Below, piece by piece: positions 1 to 6,641 of a stretch of DNA of 6,641 bases. The DNA is taken from the IMG/VR virus record IMGVR_UViG_2713896729_000007, positions 1 through 6,641 of that record; one strand, written 5' to 3'. Source of the DNA: a virus (lineage: Duplodnaviria > Heunggongvirae > Uroviricota > Caudoviricetes). The notes under the pieces are model-generated. The model saw nothing but the letters and a program-made list of their open reading frames with translations, was not told the DNA's origin and did not search any database. Position 1 is the stretch's first letter. Every line of letters begins with the position of its first letter. The position numbers and the translations under genes were made by a program.

Positions 1-216
1 ATGAAATCCATGGACAAGTTAACAACGGGCATTGCCTACGGCACCTCCGCAGGCAGTGCTGGCTACTGGTTTTTACAGTGGCTTGATCAGGTCAGTCCAT
101 CACAGTGGGCTGCTATTGGTGTGCTGGGAAGTCTGGTTCTGGGCTTTCTGACTTACCTGACGAATCTGTACTTCAAAATAAGAGAAGACAAGCGTAAAGC
201 TGCGCGGGGAGAGTAA
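1..216 (+). CDS. Class II pinholin, phage 21 S-like (Qin essQ-like), 71 aa
   Basis: ORF begins at window position 1 with MKSMDK, the dual-start Met1/Met4 motif of S21 antiholin/holin; 71 aa with hydrophobic segments and a charged C-terminal tail ([13 protein letters not shown]); located immediately upstream of an endolysin and Rz/Rz1. Upstream sequence is not visible. Confidence 0.88.
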
Positions 217-220
217 TTCA

Positions 221-565
221 ATGACTCAAAACTATGAACTGATTGTGAAAGGGATCCGCAATTTTGAGAATAAAGTTACGGTAACTTTAGCGTTACGGGA
301 CAAAAAACGCTTTGACGGTGAAATTTTTGACCTGGACATCTCGCTGGACCGTGTTGAAGGTGCCGCGCTGGAGTTTTATGAGGCAGCAGCCAGAAGGAGC
401 ATCAGACAGGTCTTCCTGGATGTTGCTGCCGGGTTATGTGAAGGGGATGAGCTGTCGCCGGAAAAGCGCCCCATAATTTTAGAGGCGCAGAATGTGTGGA
501 TAACCTACAAAGGAAAGCTACCGGGAAGAATTACTGGTTCTCTGAAGACTCCGCCGAAATGGTAA
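221..565 (+). CDS. Holin-coupled 114-aa soluble hypothetical protein in the lysis cassette (possibly YdfR/DUF1327-like, from memory only)
   Basis: ATG at 221 lies 4 nt after the holin stop, with GGGGAGAG upstream as a Shine-Dalgarno; E. coli-like codon usage; no hydrophobic segment. Family assignment rests on recalled similarity of the N-terminus (MTQ.YEL.VKG.RNFENKVTVT) to the Qin ydfR product and is unverified. Confidence 0.6.
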   Translation: MTQNYELIVKGIRNFENKVTVTLALRDKKRFDGEIFDLDISLDRVEGAALEFYEAAARRSIRQVFLDVAAGLCEGDELSPEKRPIILEAQNVWITYKGKLPGRITGSLKTPPKW

Positions 566-803
566 TTTCACCAGCATATTTTTCTTCCAGTAATACCGCC
601 AGCCACTTGAAAGAATTTTGTTGTTGCTGGGACCATTTGGGGTTGAGTGATTCAAGCTGGAGCGATGCCAGTGTTGGTTGCATTTGTTCCTTGGGAATTG
701 AGAATGCCAGATATGAAAATGCGACAGTAAGGGCATTTACATCATCCCGAAGCTTGGAAATGCAGTCGAGCAACTCCTGTAGAGAAATGGTGCTATTGTC
801 CAT
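531..803 (-). CDS. Candidate 90-aa hypothetical protein convergent with the lysis operon
   Basis: ATG at 803..801 is preceded on the - strand by GAGAGG with a 7-nt spacer; a possible TTGAAT-N19-TACAAT promoter lies just upstream; the translation is helix-like and not low complexity. Its 3' end overlaps the 221-565 ORF by 35 nt. It could still be a chance ORF. Confidence 0.25.
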   Translation of the reverse strand: MDNSTISLQELLDCISKLRDDVNALTVAFSYLAFSIPKEQMQPTLASLQLESLNPKWSQQQQNSFKWLAVLLEEKYAGEITISAESSENQ

Positions 804-908
804 AAACAATCCTCTCTATTGTATTTAACTATTCCTTGCCTGATTCAACAGGCCGGGACAGATAAACATATCCAGGGTTCAGAAACCGATAAATCCTGAT
901 AAATATCC

Positions 909-1442
909 ATGAACGTAAAAATCAGATACGGCCTGTCGGCTGCCGTTCTGGCACTGATTGCCGTCGGTGCGCCTGCGCCTGATATTCTCGACCAGTTTCT
1001 GAATGAAAAAGAAGGTAACCACACAACGGCATACCGCGATGGTTCCGGCATCTGGACCATCTGTCGGGGTGCCACGGTGGTGGATGGAAAACCCGTTTTT
1101 CCCGGTATGAAACTGTCGAAGGAAAAATGCGACCAGGTTAACGCCATTGAACGGGATAAGGCGCTGGCATGGGTGGAGCGCAATATTAAAGTGCCACTGA
1201 CCGAACCACAGAAAGCGGGTATAGCGTCATTTTGTCCCTATAACATTGGCCCCGGTAAGTGTTTCCCGTCGACGTTTTATAAGCGGCTGAATGCCGGTGA
1301 TCGTAAGGGTGCATGCGAGGCGATTCGCTGGTGGATAAAAGATGGTGGGCGCGATTGCCGCATACGTTCAAATAACTGCTATGGACAGGTTATTCGTCGT
1401 GACCAGGAAAGCGCATTAGCCTGTTGGGGGATAGATCAGTGA
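909..1442 (+). CDS. SAR endolysin, T4-lysozyme-like muramidase (GH24), 177 aa (Qin rrrQ-like)
   Basis: Catalytic E-x8-D-x5-T motif ([16 protein letters not shown]); Gly/Ala-rich weakly hydrophobic N-terminus ([17 protein letters not shown]) typical of signal-arrest-release endolysins partnered with pinholins; stop codon overlaps the Rz start. Confidence 0.88.
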
Positions 1443-1809
1443 GCAGAGTCGCCGCGATTATTTATGCTCTGGTTATCTGCATCATCGTCTGCCTGTCGTG
1501 GGCGGTCAATCATTACCGTGATAACGCCATCGCCTACAAAGAACAGCGTGATAAAAAAGTCAGTGAGCTGAAGCAGGCGACCGCCACCATTACTGACATG
1601 CAGCAACGCCAGCGTGCTGCTGATGTACTCGATGCTAAATACACGAAGGAGTTGGCTGATGCGAAAGCTGAAAATGATGCTCTTCGGCGCAAGCTTGATA
1701 ATGGTGGTCGGGTGCTCGTCAAAGGAAAATGCTCTGTGCCATCCTCAGCCGAAACCTCCAGCGCCTCCGGCATGGGCAATGATGCCACCGTCGAACTCTC
1801 TCCAGTTGC
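1439..1809 (+). CDS. Rz-type i-spanin, 3' end truncated by the N gap
   Basis: GTG at 1439 overlaps the endolysin TGA (GTGA), preceded by GGGGGA with a 7-nt spacer; N-terminal transmembrane segment ([17 protein letters not shown]) followed by a charged, coiled-coil-like periplasmic region; runs into N run at 1810. Start could alternatively be TTG 1424. Confidence 0.78.
1659..1809 (+). CDS. Rz1-type o-spanin lipoprotein embedded in the +1 frame of Rz, 3' end truncated by the gap
   Basis: ATG at 1659 preceded by AAGGAG; product [19 protein letters not shown] with lipobox VVGC followed by a proline-rich region ([11 protein letters not shown]); lies entirely within Rz in another frame. Confidence 0.75.
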
Positions 1810-1819
1810 NNNNNNNNNN
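1810..1819. other. Assembly gap (10 N), probable scaffold join between two contigs
   Basis: Run of exactly 10 N; truncated genes on both sides; homologous Rz sequences converge on it from opposite strands. Confidence 0.9.
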
Positions 1820-1908
1820 AGAGGATGGCACAGGGCATTTTCCTTTGACGAGCACCCTGCCACCATTATCAAGCTTCCGCAGAAGAGCATCATTTTCAGC
1901 TTTCGCAT
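1820..1908 (-). CDS. rzoD: Rz1-type o-spanin lipoprotein, second copy, 3' end truncated by the gap
   Basis: ATG at 1908..1906 preceded on the - strand by AAGGAG; product [29 protein letters not shown] with lipobox VAGC; embedded in the second Rz. Symbol inferred from the DLP12-like gene order. Confidence 0.65.
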
Positions 1909-2128
1909 CAGCTAACTCCTTCGTGTATTTTGCATCGAGCGCAGCAACATCACGCTGACGCATCTGCATGTCAGTAATTGCCGCGTTCGCCAGCTTCAGT
2001 TCTCTGACATTTTTGTCGCGCTGGGCTTTGTAGGTAATGGCGTTATCACGGTAATGATTAACAGCCCATGACAGGCAGACGATGATGCAGATAACCAGAG
2101 CGGAGATAATCGCGGTTACTCTGTTCAT
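1820..2128 (-). CDS. rzpD: Rz-type i-spanin, second copy, 3' end truncated by the gap
   Basis: ATG at 2128..2126 overlaps the endolysin stop (ATGA); N-terminal transmembrane segment ([16 protein letters not shown]); roughly 88 percent nucleotide identity, by eye, to the reverse complement of 1439-1809. Confidence 0.78.
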
Positions 2129-2622
2129 TGCTGACCCCACAAACAGATTTCACGCTCAATCTCACGACGAGTCATGAGACCTTTCCATTGCTTACCGCCA
2201 GCATATGTCCAGCGACGTAGCTGATCACATGCGTCTTTGATATCGCCCTTGTTTATTTTGCGAAGAAGCGTCGATGTTCTGAAATTGCCAGCACCCACGT
2301 TGTAAACGAATGAGTAAAGAGCGCCGCGCATTGTTTCCGGTATATCGACTTTGATGTACGGGTTAATTTGTCTGGCGACCGTGGCAAGGTCTTTATTCAG
2401 GAGGGCTTTGCATTCTGCTTTGGTATACGTTTTACCGAGCATGATGTCTTTTCCTGTATGCCCGTGACATACAGTCCATACACCAACAATATCTTTGTAT
2501 GGTATGTAGCTGACACCTTCCAGACCATCGTTACCACTTGGGCCAGTAATTAACACTGATGCTATAGCAATTGCTCCGCCACCAATAGCAGCAGCAACGG
2601 CTTTTCGTAATGATGGAGGCAT
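2125..2622 (-). CDS. rrrD: SAR endolysin, phage 21 R-like, T4-lysozyme-like muramidase, 165 aa (DLP12 rrrD-like)
   Basis: Begins [27 protein letters not shown] (SAR domain); E-x8-D-x5-T motif ([16 protein letters not shown]); ATG overlaps the holin TAA by 1 nt; 165 aa. Confidence 0.88.
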
Positions 2623-2837
2623 TATTCACCTCTCGCAGCCTTGCGCTTATCTTCTTTAATCTTGAAATAAAGGTTTGTCAGGTACGTCAGCAGGCCAAAT
2701 ACCAGGCTACCCAGCACACCTATTGCTGCCCACTGTGAGGGCGTGACTTTATCGAGCAGCTGTAAAAACCAGTAACCGGCACTACCTGCTGAGGTGCCAT
2801 AGGCGACACCCGTTGTTAACTTATCCATGGATTTCAT
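2622..2837 (-). CDS. essD: Class II pinholin, phage 21 S-like, 71 aa (DLP12 essD-like)
   Basis: [16 protein letters not shown] dual-start motif; ATG at 2837..2835 preceded by GGTGGGG with about 6 nt spacing. The 86-aa version in the ORF track is an N-terminal extension without a better ribosome-binding site. Confidence 0.85.
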
Positions 2838-3424
2838 AACCCCACCTCGCAGACAAAGCGGGTGTAAATTGAGGGAATACAACGTATCGCAAAAAAGCAG
2901 AAACGTAACAGACTCGGAGTCAGTGAATAACTCAGGTATTGGGTTATCAGCTAATATCGAGACTCAAAAAATGGAAAAATCCGCTCGACGGCGGGTTTAA
3001 GCTGTGTGACGAAGTAACCACTCTTAACAGCATAACCAATTTTTTACGTACGTAAACCACTAAATGATATTTGCGAGAATGCTACCGAGTATTGAAAACA
3101 CCACTACAAATACATAAGCAAATCTCAACAAATAACCAACAAATAATTTCCAGCGTTATTTTTAGCTGGTTTAAATTGAATCTTCAAATTATAGAGCACT
3201 TATAAATAACAGCCATTAATATAAATTGGCTAATAGATTTATTTTTATTCAGCCAAGAGCCATGAATAGGATTCGATAGAAAAAGTTCAGATAAAAATAG
3301 AGATCTACTTCACAAATCAAATGAGAAACCAAAACTTACATCTTGAAATAATCACATTGATTAGATGAATATTTATCGCGCAGTGACATCATTTTTTAAT
3401 AATAGTTCAAAAAAAGGGCTCACG
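2838..3424. promoter_or_regulatory. AT-rich divergent control region between the holin (-) and the porin (+)
   Basis: About 590 bp, strongly AT-rich with many A/T tracts (3050-3400), no convincing ORF, directly upstream of the porin start at 3425; exact promoter elements not resolved. Confidence 0.4.
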
Positions 3425-4507
3425 ATGAAAAAATTAACAGTGGCAATTTCTGCTGTAGCTGCATCAGTACTGATGGCGATGTCTGCTCAGGCAGCTGAAA
3501 TTTATAATAAAGACAGTAACAAGCTGGATCTGTACGGGAAAGTTAATGCTAAGCACTACTTCTCCTCTAATGATGCAGATGATGGTGATACTACTTATGC
3601 CCGTCTTGGCTTCAAAGGTGAAACCCAAATCAACGATCAACTGACTGGTTTCGGTCAGTGGGAATATGAATTCAAAGGCAACCGCGCTGAATCTCAAGGT
3701 TCCTCCAAAGATAAAACCCGTCTTGCCTTCGCTGGCCTGAAATTCGGTGACTACGGCTCCATCGATTATGGCCGTAACTACGGTGTAGCATACGATATTG
3801 GTGCATGGACCGACGTTCTGCCAGAATTCGGTGGCGATACCTGGACCCAAACAGATGTATTCATGACTGGTCGCACCACAGGTGTTGCAACTTATCGTAA
3901 CAATGACTTCTTTGGTCTGGTTGATGGTCTGAACTTTGCTGCTCAGTATCAGGGTAAAAATGACCGCACTGACGTAACTGAAGCTAATGGTGATGGTTTC
4001 GGTTTCTCCACTACTTATGAGTATGAAGGATTCGGTGTAGGTGCAACCTATGCTAAATCTGACCGCACTAATAATCAGGTTATCTACGGTAACAACAGCC
4101 TGAATGCATCTGGTCAAAATGCTGAAGTATGGGCAGCTGGTCTGAAATATGATGCGAACAACATCTATCTGGCTACCACCTATTCTGAAACCCAGAACAT
4201 GACTGTTTTTGGTAATAACCATATTGCCAACAAAGCACAAAACTTCGAAGTAGTTGCACAATATCAGTTCGACTTCGGTCTGCGTCCGTCCGTTGCTTAC
4301 CTGCAATCTAAAGGAAAAGACTTGGGTGCGTGGGGTGATCAGGACTTGGTTGAATATATTGATGTAGGTGCAACCTATTACTTCAACAAAAATATGTCCA
4401 CTTTTGTTGATTACAAAATCAACCTGATTGATAAGAGCGATTTCACGAAAGCATCTGGCGTTGCTACCGATGATATCGTTGCTGTAGGTATGGTTTACCA
4501 GTTCTAA
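3425..4507 (+). CDS. nmpC: General-diffusion outer-membrane porin of the OmpC/OmpF/NmpC family, intact, 360 aa
   Basis: Signal peptide [23 protein letters not shown] followed by [16 protein letters not shown]; conserved porin motifs ([17 protein letters not shown]-terminal VYQF with terminal Phe); position between a Q-like gene and the S-like holin on the opposite strand matches DLP12. The track ORF start at 3365 was rejected in favour of ATG 3425 directly before the signal peptide. Confidence 0.9.
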
Positions 4508-4522
4508 TTTGATTACTAAAAG

Positions 4523-4556
4523 ATATGTTGCGGGAGGCTTTGCCTCCCCAACATAT
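4523..4556. terminator. Long imperfect hairpin 16 nt after the porin stop; candidate bidirectional or - strand (tR'-like) terminator
   Basis: atatgttg-c-gggaggc ttt gcctccc caacatat forms a 15-bp stem with one bulge; on the - strand it is followed by CTTTTAG; on the + strand it is not followed by a T run. Confidence 0.4.
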
Positions 4557-4644
4557 AAGTGGCTCCCTCAAGCCACTTCCTTTAGGAGCACAACCTTGCT
4601 TCTAACTATATAAACCTTCTGTTATATATTACCCTTTATTTTTG

Positions 4645-4669
4645 GGGGCGTCTCAACGCCCCATTTTTA
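4645..4669 (+). terminator. Rho-independent terminator, + strand
   Basis: ggggcgt ctca acgcccc (7-bp GC-rich stem, 4-nt loop) followed by ATTTTTAA; on the - strand it is followed by an A run, so it is unidirectional. Confidence 0.5.
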
Positions 4670-4695
4670 ATAACTTTTAGTAAATAATTGGCGTA

Positions 4696-5058
4696 TTAAT
4701 TAGAGTTATTAACAACGATATCCATCTCTAACCGGATATCTAATGCCATTAACATCCCTTCAATTATGCCCTCAGCCTTCTGTAACCTTTTCCCGATATA
4801 ACCATCAGAGCAGCAATGCTTACCTGCCAGTGACATGAATGTCATACCGACTACATAATAATCTACTAATAAATCGTGCAAATCGCTGTTGTTCTTTTTC
4901 AGACGGGCCATGCACCCGCAAATGATCATCGCGTCATCGTCACAACATTGCGGGCGAGATTTTACTTTTGAAGTAATTAATCCCTTAAAACCGGCGGCAA
5001 TGGACGACCAGGTCACATCTTCATGATTATTAGCCGCCCACGCTCCCCAACGCTCAAG
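4696..5058 (-). CDS. quuD: Q-like late-gene antiterminator, C-terminal about 120 aa; N-terminus lost in the gap
   Basis: Reading frame with paired cysteines (QCCDDD, CGC, KHCC) suggesting zinc binding; stop at 4698..4696; its position relative to the porin and holin matches DLP12 order quuD-nmpC-essD. Identity is recalled from the DLP12 QuuD (phage 82 Q family) sequence, unverified. Confidence 0.55.
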
Positions 5059-5068
5059 NNNNNNNNNN
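5059..5068. other. Assembly gap (10 N), probable scaffold join
   Basis: Run of exactly 10 N separating a 5' lom fragment from unrelated Q-like coding sequence. Confidence 0.9.
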
Positions 5069-5346
5069 CGTAAGGAATCTTCATGCCAGCGGGTATCGCT
5101 GTAACGGGTCAGCTGGCGATTCTTGTCTCCTGCATAGCTGAATGACGTCACCAGCCCTAGTGTGTCCGTAAACTCATAACGGTATTTCACGTTAATCCCG
5201 TTCAGATCATCGCTGCCGGGAACGTTCGTCGAGGCATGAAGATAGCCCGCGCTCAGCGTGGACTGATGTTCAGACGCCCATGCAGGCGCACCGGATACGG
5301 CCAGACAGATGGCTGCGGACAAAATGGCGGCATAAAGTTTACGCAT
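5069..5346 (-). CDS. lom: Lom outer-membrane protein (Ail/OmpX/PagC family), N-terminal 92 aa only; truncated at the gap
   Basis: MRKLYAAILSAAICLAVSGAPAWA signal peptide followed by SEHQSTLSAGYLHASTN...YAGDKNRQLTRYSDTRWHEDS, near-identical to lambda Lom as recalled; ATG at 5346 preceded by GAGAGG with a 6-nt spacer; lies immediately downstream of J as in lambda. Confidence 0.85.
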
Positions 5347-5366
5347 AATTACCTCTCGCTTTTCTG

Positions 5367-5394
5367 CAATAAAAAAGGCGCCAGAAATGGCGCC
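5367..5394 (-). terminator. Rho-independent terminator after J, - strand
   Basis: ggcgcc agaaat ggcgcc stem-loop followed on the - strand by TTTTTTATT; about 20 nt downstream of the J stop. Confidence 0.55.
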
Positions 5395-5414
5395 CGCATA
5401 TGGGTTATGAAAAT

Positions 5415-6641
5415 TCAGCTAATCGTGATACCTGCTGTGGATTTCTTCATCACCACAACCAGCAAATCGCTGATACTGGCTGTGGGATACCAGTCATTTA
5501 CCAGCCACGCTGATACCGAAAACTCCAGCGTCATGTGACCGCGACCAGCAGGCATATCAATAACACCTGTATAAACCAGCGTATTATCCAGCGCGGTACG
5601 GTTATAAATTTCAGCACCGTTTTTCTTCACTATCAGGCGGCATGACGAATAAATATCGTTATTCTCCCGCTCATGTTTAGCGCCACGAAACGCCACCGCG
5701 GGAATAACAATCTGCCGGTCAAACGGCTGATCGTCATAAACCCTGACGGTAATGGTCCCTGATGGCCACCGCTCCGGTGCACGGGAGTCCCGGGGGAAAG
5801 CTTTGCCCACTGTTTTAACGAGATCGCCTTCAATCTGGTTCGCGGACAGTTTTCCCAGAACCCGACAGTTCTCGTTAATCGTGACATTGTTGAGCGTCCC
5901 GGCGTTCGCATTCACACTGCCACTGATATCCGCATTTTTAGCGGTCAGCTTTCCGTCCGGTGTCAGGGAAAATACCGGTGGATTTCCACCACTGGTAATG
6001 GTGGGGGCCGTCAGGCGTTTGAGGAACACGTCGTTCATGAATATCTGGTTGCCCTGCGCCACAAACATCGGCGTTTCATTCCCGTTTGCCGGGTCAATAA
6101 ACGCGATACGATTGGCGGCAACCAGAAACTGGCTCAGTTTGCCTTCCTCTGTATCCTCCATGCTGAGGCCAAGCCCCGCGACATAATGTTTGCCGTCTTT
6201 GGTCTGCTCAATTTTGACGCCCCACATGGCATTCCATTTATCGTTGGCGTCTTTCCACTCTTTCGAAAACTCCTCCAGTCTGCTGGCGTTATCCTCCGTC
6301 AGGTCGACTTTTTCCAGCAGCTCCTTGCCGAGATGGGATTCGGTTATCAGGCCTTTGAAAAAATCCAGGTAACCTTCCGCATCATCGCTCGCCCGACCGA
6401 CGGCCTCCACAAATGCCGATTTGCCAACGGTGTTCACACTGCGGATATAAAAGTAATAATCATGGCCCGGTTTGATATTGATACTGGCGGCTATCCAGTA
6501 CAGCGCCGTACCAAGATAGCGGGCTGTGGTTTCAACCTGCCTGATATCGGTAATCCGCGTTTCCGAGAACCAGAACTCAAACTGTACCGTCGGATCATAA
6601 ACCGCAAGATGCGGCGTGGCGGTTATCTGAAAATAGCCCGG
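5415..6641 (-). CDS. J: Tail tip / host-specificity protein J, C-terminal about 408 aa; 5' end beyond the window
   Basis: Frame is open from the window edge at 6641 ([33 protein letters not shown]...) to the stop at 5417..5415 and ends ...[17 protein letters not shown], matching the lambda J C-terminal region as recalled. The internal start at 6437 in the ORF track is an artefact. Confidence 0.9.

Follow-up and report, generated by a model that had tools for sequence, protein, structure and literature searches.

The 216-codon ORF on the minus strand at positions 4696-5346 of the window (the whole stretch of 6,641 nt that was analysed) is almost certainly, at a probability of roughly 96%, an artefact of contig concatenation in a draft E. 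coli assembly, in which codons 1-92 of lom are followed in frame by the last 120 codons of quuD. By this account, three short-read contigs (1-1809, 1820-5058, and 5069-6641) would have been strung together with 10-N spacers, their ends all falling within repeated genes or elements of E. coli (Rz, Q, and lom, with IS1 just outside the window). The contig carrying J and nt 1-278 of lom would have been placed, in the same orientation, beside a contig beginning at codon 8 of quuD, and an ORF finder that reads through Ns would have continued from one into the other, 278 + 10 being divisible by three. Two ordinary lambdoid prophage genes, lom downstream of J and quuD, are truly present.

Features of the window (positions, strand, identity):

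1-1809, plus: end of the third contig with a Qin-like lysis cassette (essQ-type holin, YdfR/DUF1327, rrrQ-like lysozyme, and the 5' 128 codons of Rz), identified by Pfam
1810-1819, no strand: 10-N contig join, the second in the window, where a DLP12-like and a Qin-like Rz spanin gene converge, both lacking their 3' ends
1820-2140, minus: 5' fragment of rzpD (Rz spanin), 107 codons; Pfam Phage_lysis, profile positions 1-67 of 126; cut at the other end of the 3,239-bp quuD contig
2125-2622, minus: rrrD lysozyme; Pfam Phage_lysozyme and RefSeq rrrD
2622-2837, minus: essD, phage-21-type holin, 71 aa; Pfam Phage_holin_2_1 and RefSeq essD at the colinear position
3425-4507, plus: porin gene (nmpC/ompC-like, DLP12), lying between the oppositely oriented quuD and holin genes; Pfam Porin_1 (E=3.7e-153) and a colinear RefSeq homologue
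4696-5058, minus: 3' part of quuD, codons 8-127 and stop; Q21-family late-gene antiterminator of a DLP12-like prophage, by Pfam and DNA identity
5059-5068, no strand: run of 10 N, read as the spacer between two contigs in a draft scaffold; homology ends at both edges
5069-5346, minus: lom, the first 278 nt of a 600-nt gene, encoding the signal peptide and the beginning of the Ail/Lom beta-barrel and stopping at the contig end
5376-5395, minus: terminator-like GC-rich hairpin and T run, after the J stop and before the lom start, a candidate from a consensus scan
5415-6641, minus: tail-tip gene J, its last 408 codons, with the frame open to the end of the window and of the record; Pfam Phage_Tail_Tip and Ig_GpJ_C

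Two truncated genes in one reading frame

The N-terminal part of the ORF, residues 1-92, matched the Pfam family Ail_Lom (PF06316) with E=1.2e-49 and a score of 169 bits (cut-off 23), the match covering profile positions 1-91 of 199. In a protein alignment these residues were identical to residues 1-92 of the 199-aa Lom of E. coli strain 05-3629, and they were 97.8-98.9% identical to Lom of phages 434 (97.8%), ev099, and Perceval. Lysogens express Lom, a barrel protein that is secreted to the outer membrane. As in lambda, the gene lies directly downstream of J, whose translation is open from 6641 down to its stop, and the J-lom contig is 98.7% identical to gpJ-lom of NCTC11129. Unlike lambda Lom and the other Ail/Lom proteins, the window holds the first 278 of 600 nt, with about 107 barrel codons cut off by the contig end; the complete eight-strand barrel is thus absent from the ORF, and native homologues run 107 residues further. 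A plausible ribosome-binding site, GAGAGG, can be read 7 nt upstream of the lom start, and the candidate hairpin at 5376-5395 would be consistent with transcription of lom separately from the tail operon.

In the last five bases of the lom contig (5069-5073), two positions differ from the otherwise closest lom alleles, those of JML285 and NCTC11129. At least one of the two agrees with the 05-3629 allele (1 difference from the window in 72 bases), and the variant bases encode Leu92 in place of Val. Such differences at the very end of the contig suggest that the allele is mosaic or that the consensus mixes copies.

The C-terminal part, residues 97-216, belongs to a different family, Phage_antitermQ (PF06530; E=1.8e-48, profile positions 8-118 of 118), and was identical in a protein alignment to residues 8-127 of the 127-aa QuuD of strain 120899. 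At the DNA level, the 363-nt fragment shares 100% identity with quuD (ybcQ) of K-12 MG1655, C600, and many others, as well as with the Q gene of phage 434, and its relation to Q21 is detectable in a match to the sequences of the solved Q21 structures 6P18 and 6JNX (E=1.3e-6). Six cysteines are found among its 120 residues. QuuD is a Q21-type cytoplasmic factor that modifies RNA polymerase at the late promoter, leading, in an intact prophage, to terminator read-through into the lysis genes essD-rrrD-rzpD. The fragment is found upstream of a late/lysis operon, in the order quuD-porin-essD-rrrD-rzpD, with nmpC as the porin gene of the corresponding DLP12 order. Unlike QuuD of DLP12 and phage 434 Q, it has neither its own start nor a full N-terminus, codons 1-7 (MRDIQMV) lying beyond the contig end together with the upstream nin region. 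No convincing promoter was found downstream of quuD in a consensus scan, and no RNA family reached the Rfam gathering threshold anywhere in the window.

The two parts are held in one frame across the N run by arithmetic. On the coding strand, the side before the run has 278 nt, or 92 codons plus 2 bases, and the side after it has 363 nt, or 120 codons and a stop, which with the run make up the 651 nt and 216 codons that open with the ATG at 5346. The frame is kept across the Ns because 278 + 10 gives 288 bases, exactly 96 codons, after which the quuD fragment begins on a codon boundary; in either of the remaining two frames, the fragment meets a stop within 15 codons. Given equal orientation of the two genes, an in-frame join has a chance of about 1 in 3, and its occurrence here is hence coincidental.

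These results bear on an earlier, sequence-only reading of the window, which had described a minus-strand ORF that spans the N run, starts as lambda-like lom for 92 residues, continues as unrelated Cys-rich sequence, and ends where a Q antiterminator should end relative to the porin and the holin. The ORF, the lom identity, the Q-family identity of the Cys-rich part, and its position next to the porin and holin were all borne out; the separate searches of residues 1-92 and 97-216 that it had proposed returned two unrelated Pfam families, and the arithmetic agrees with its view that the continuity of the frame is coincidental.

The source scaffold and its 10-N joins

The window, as its reverse complement, makes up the final 6,641 nt of WGS record JRRJ01000088.1, a draft scaffold of 2,393,174 bp in assembly GCA_001413355.1, and an exact look-up of the ORF product returned this one record. 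This assembly appears in PMC9638481 under E. coli RU1 MA1. Within the last 11.9 kb of the record there are three N runs, each of exactly 10 and each coinciding with a break in homology (lom/Q, Rz/Rz, and Q2/IS1); the pieces they set off are 1,573 bp, 3,239 bp, and 5,448 bp long. The first join is that inside the ORF, the second lies at 1810-1819, and the third (9986-10340 of locus L005), about 3.6 kb past the left end of the window, sets a 5'-truncated second Q paralogue against an IS1 terminal inverted repeat.

The genes in which the contigs end are repetitive. Those for lom, Q, and the lysis cassette occur in up to 13-15 places per E. coli genome, and the source genome itself has at least two Q genes and at least two holin-lysozyme-Rz cassettes. 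Because all contig ends fall in sequences that are multi-copy both in E. coli and in the source genome, we infer that the contigs broke at repeats, the usual signature of short-read assembly. The missing 3' half of lom and the 5' end of quuD would also be expected elsewhere in the genome of the strain. The ORF resembles the chimeric ORFs that arise over N spacers in draft genomes, a familiar artefact of annotation, in having an N run at the junction, unrelated truncated genes on its flanks, spacers of equal length where homology breaks elsewhere, and contigs that end within prophage or IS sequence of several copies; it shows no difference from them, the sole element of chance being the preserved frame.

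Other calls across the joins were also seen. Four ORFs cross 1810-1819 and gain artefactual tails there (1424-1915 and 1614-1958 on the plus strand, 1745-2140 and 1534-1908 on the minus strand). The same join also interrupts the Rz1 lipoprotein frames (MRKLKMMLF...GC) that are embedded there, and a public gene index lists genes of 127 aa and 158 aa across it. A 102-aa ORF was called across the third join. The second Q paralogue differs from the quuD of the window by scattered substitutions in the aligned region, denser toward the 3' end.

The presence of IS1 at the third join bears on the alternative that fares best, namely that the lom and quuD fragments are true neighbours in the strain, disrupted by a repeat within a gap far longer than 10 bases, for instance an IS element or a rearrangement brought about by one. 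On that view, too, the 216-aa ORF would be an artefact, but the truncated lom and quuD would be real pseudogenes. IS insertions are common contig breakpoints, IS1 fragments are found elsewhere in the same locus of the source record, and in one complete genome (DXMF6-3R) IS1 lies within quuD. Against this, no IS end is present on either flank of 5059-5068, where quuD matches at 100% and lom follows the 05-3629 allele to the last base. Gene order, considered below, also speaks against adjacency, and we judge this explanation very improbable beside that of a contig-join artefact.

Homology and gene order at the junction

Support for the artefact came from comparison with other genomes, in which both loci lose homology exactly at the 5059-5068 run and the native sequences diverge beyond it. 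On the quuD side, window positions 2060-5058 are colinear with a DLP12-like region of strain 120899 (order rzpD-rrrD-essD-porin-quuD) at 99.4% identity over 2,999 bp, and the match ends exactly at 5058; in closed genomes, quuD continues upstream through its first seven codons into ylcG, rusA, ybcO, ninE, and ybcN. On the lom side, positions 5074-6493 align colinearly with J-lom of strain JML285 (98.9% identity), and in closed genomes lom continues for 107 more codons, after which comes a tail-fibre gene. The homologous J-lom-tail-fibre block of JML285 (NZ_AP024114.1; 25189-26268 of locus L003) is what remains of a prophage at thrW (tRNA-Thr); in it, J is cut to its last 1,080 nt and stands beside yfdR/yfdT-type genes and an integrase, whereas J in the window is open to the end of the record.

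When a 725-bp query across the join was searched against 5,426 complete E. coli genomes (20,395 records) and 50,697 phage records, none of either set contained the two halves together at 80% or more of the query, and the best coverage was 50%; each half alone is extremely common in the same collections. The exact chimeric sequence, with its X residues, was absent from a collection of 15 billion proteins. At the lom/Q join, no k-mer overlap was found between the contig ends, the longest shared exact words being at most 11 nt. The 45 nt beside the gap on the lom side had no exact match among species-representative genomes, a set that does not include the source strain. No closed genome nearly identical to the source strain was found, the J-lom contig reaching at best 98.7% identity and the quuD contig 99.4%.

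The order of the two genes also differs from that of known prophages. On the lambda map, Q is located upstream of the head, tail, and lom genes in the integrated prophage. In phage 434, the sequences corresponding to the lom and Q fragments (18988-19263 and 41406-41768, respectively) are on the same strand about 22 kb apart, and in JML285 no Q gene was found within about 25 kb on either side of lom. Because Q precedes the head, tail, and lom genes in the integrated prophage, lom followed by Q on one strand does not result from a simple deletion. This order thus counts against true neighbours, as does the adjacent join of convergent Rz fragments, which likewise does not resemble a biological order.

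It may also be imagined that the gap conceals a real, short junction left by a rearrangement in RU1 MA1, in which the lom signal peptide and first barrel strands were fused in frame with QuuD. Such a hybrid gene would mark a large prophage deletion or recombination event, and its product would probably be non-functional; we give this reading hardly any credence.

Scarcely credible, too, is a real Lom-QuuD fusion gene of which 10 bases were unread or masked. The frame is unbroken across the Ns, the lom start has its plausible GAGAGG site, and a public gene-position index lists the 216-codon ORF as a single gene of 216 aa, for which it records no Pfam hit. Against it stand the three N runs of equal length within 12 kb, every one at a homology break, the interruption by 10 N of the very sequence that crosses the domain junction, and the failure of the architecture to recur in the genomes, phage records, and protein collection searched above. 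The product would also be functionally senseless, consisting of a secretion signal and three to four strands of an incomplete eight-strand barrel placed on a cytoplasmic RNA-polymerase-binding factor without its N-terminus, which would thereby be directed to the envelope.

Two further candidates were rejected: a 10-base mask over continuous sequence, since the flanks are colinear with no reference across the gap and three of three N runs lie at homology breaks, and an IS element at the lom/quuD junction itself, since neither flank has IS terminal sequence.

We therefore retain the contig-join artefact as the explanation of the ORF. The description of it in the sequence-only reading, as a chimera of a lom 5' half and a Q-like 3' half across Ns, stands, with both halves identified, homology breaking at the N run, and the adjacency absent elsewhere. 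So does the warning that annotation as one protein or as a novel Lom fusion would be wrong, given that none of the 5,426 E. coli genomes or 50,697 phage records searched has both halves in one place, and given the 10-N draft joins. Flagging ORF 4696-5346 averts a false "Lom-Q fusion" annotation, and the case holds a lesson for data quality: ORF finders and some gene callers cross short N spacers, and the resulting chimeras can enter protein sets as apparent novel domain fusions.

Other genes in the window

J, lom, quuD, the nmpC-like porin gene, essD, rrrD, and rzpD are already well-known genes of lambdoid and DLP12 prophages. The Qin-like cassette at 1-1809 was named from the RefSeq annotation of regions 96.5% identical to it. 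Two phage-21-type holin genes are present in opposed orientation, at 1-216 on the plus strand and 2622-2837 on the minus strand, each encoding 71 aa with an MKSM dual-start motif. This pair represents two prophage lysis cassettes joined by concatenation and not a real inverted duplication.

The porin ORF was called by program from an ATG at 3365 (3365-4507, 380 aa). The start of the RefSeq homologue ([10 protein letters not shown]...) corresponds to window position 3425 and gives a protein of 360 aa, and the ATG at 3365 is probably 20 codons too far upstream.
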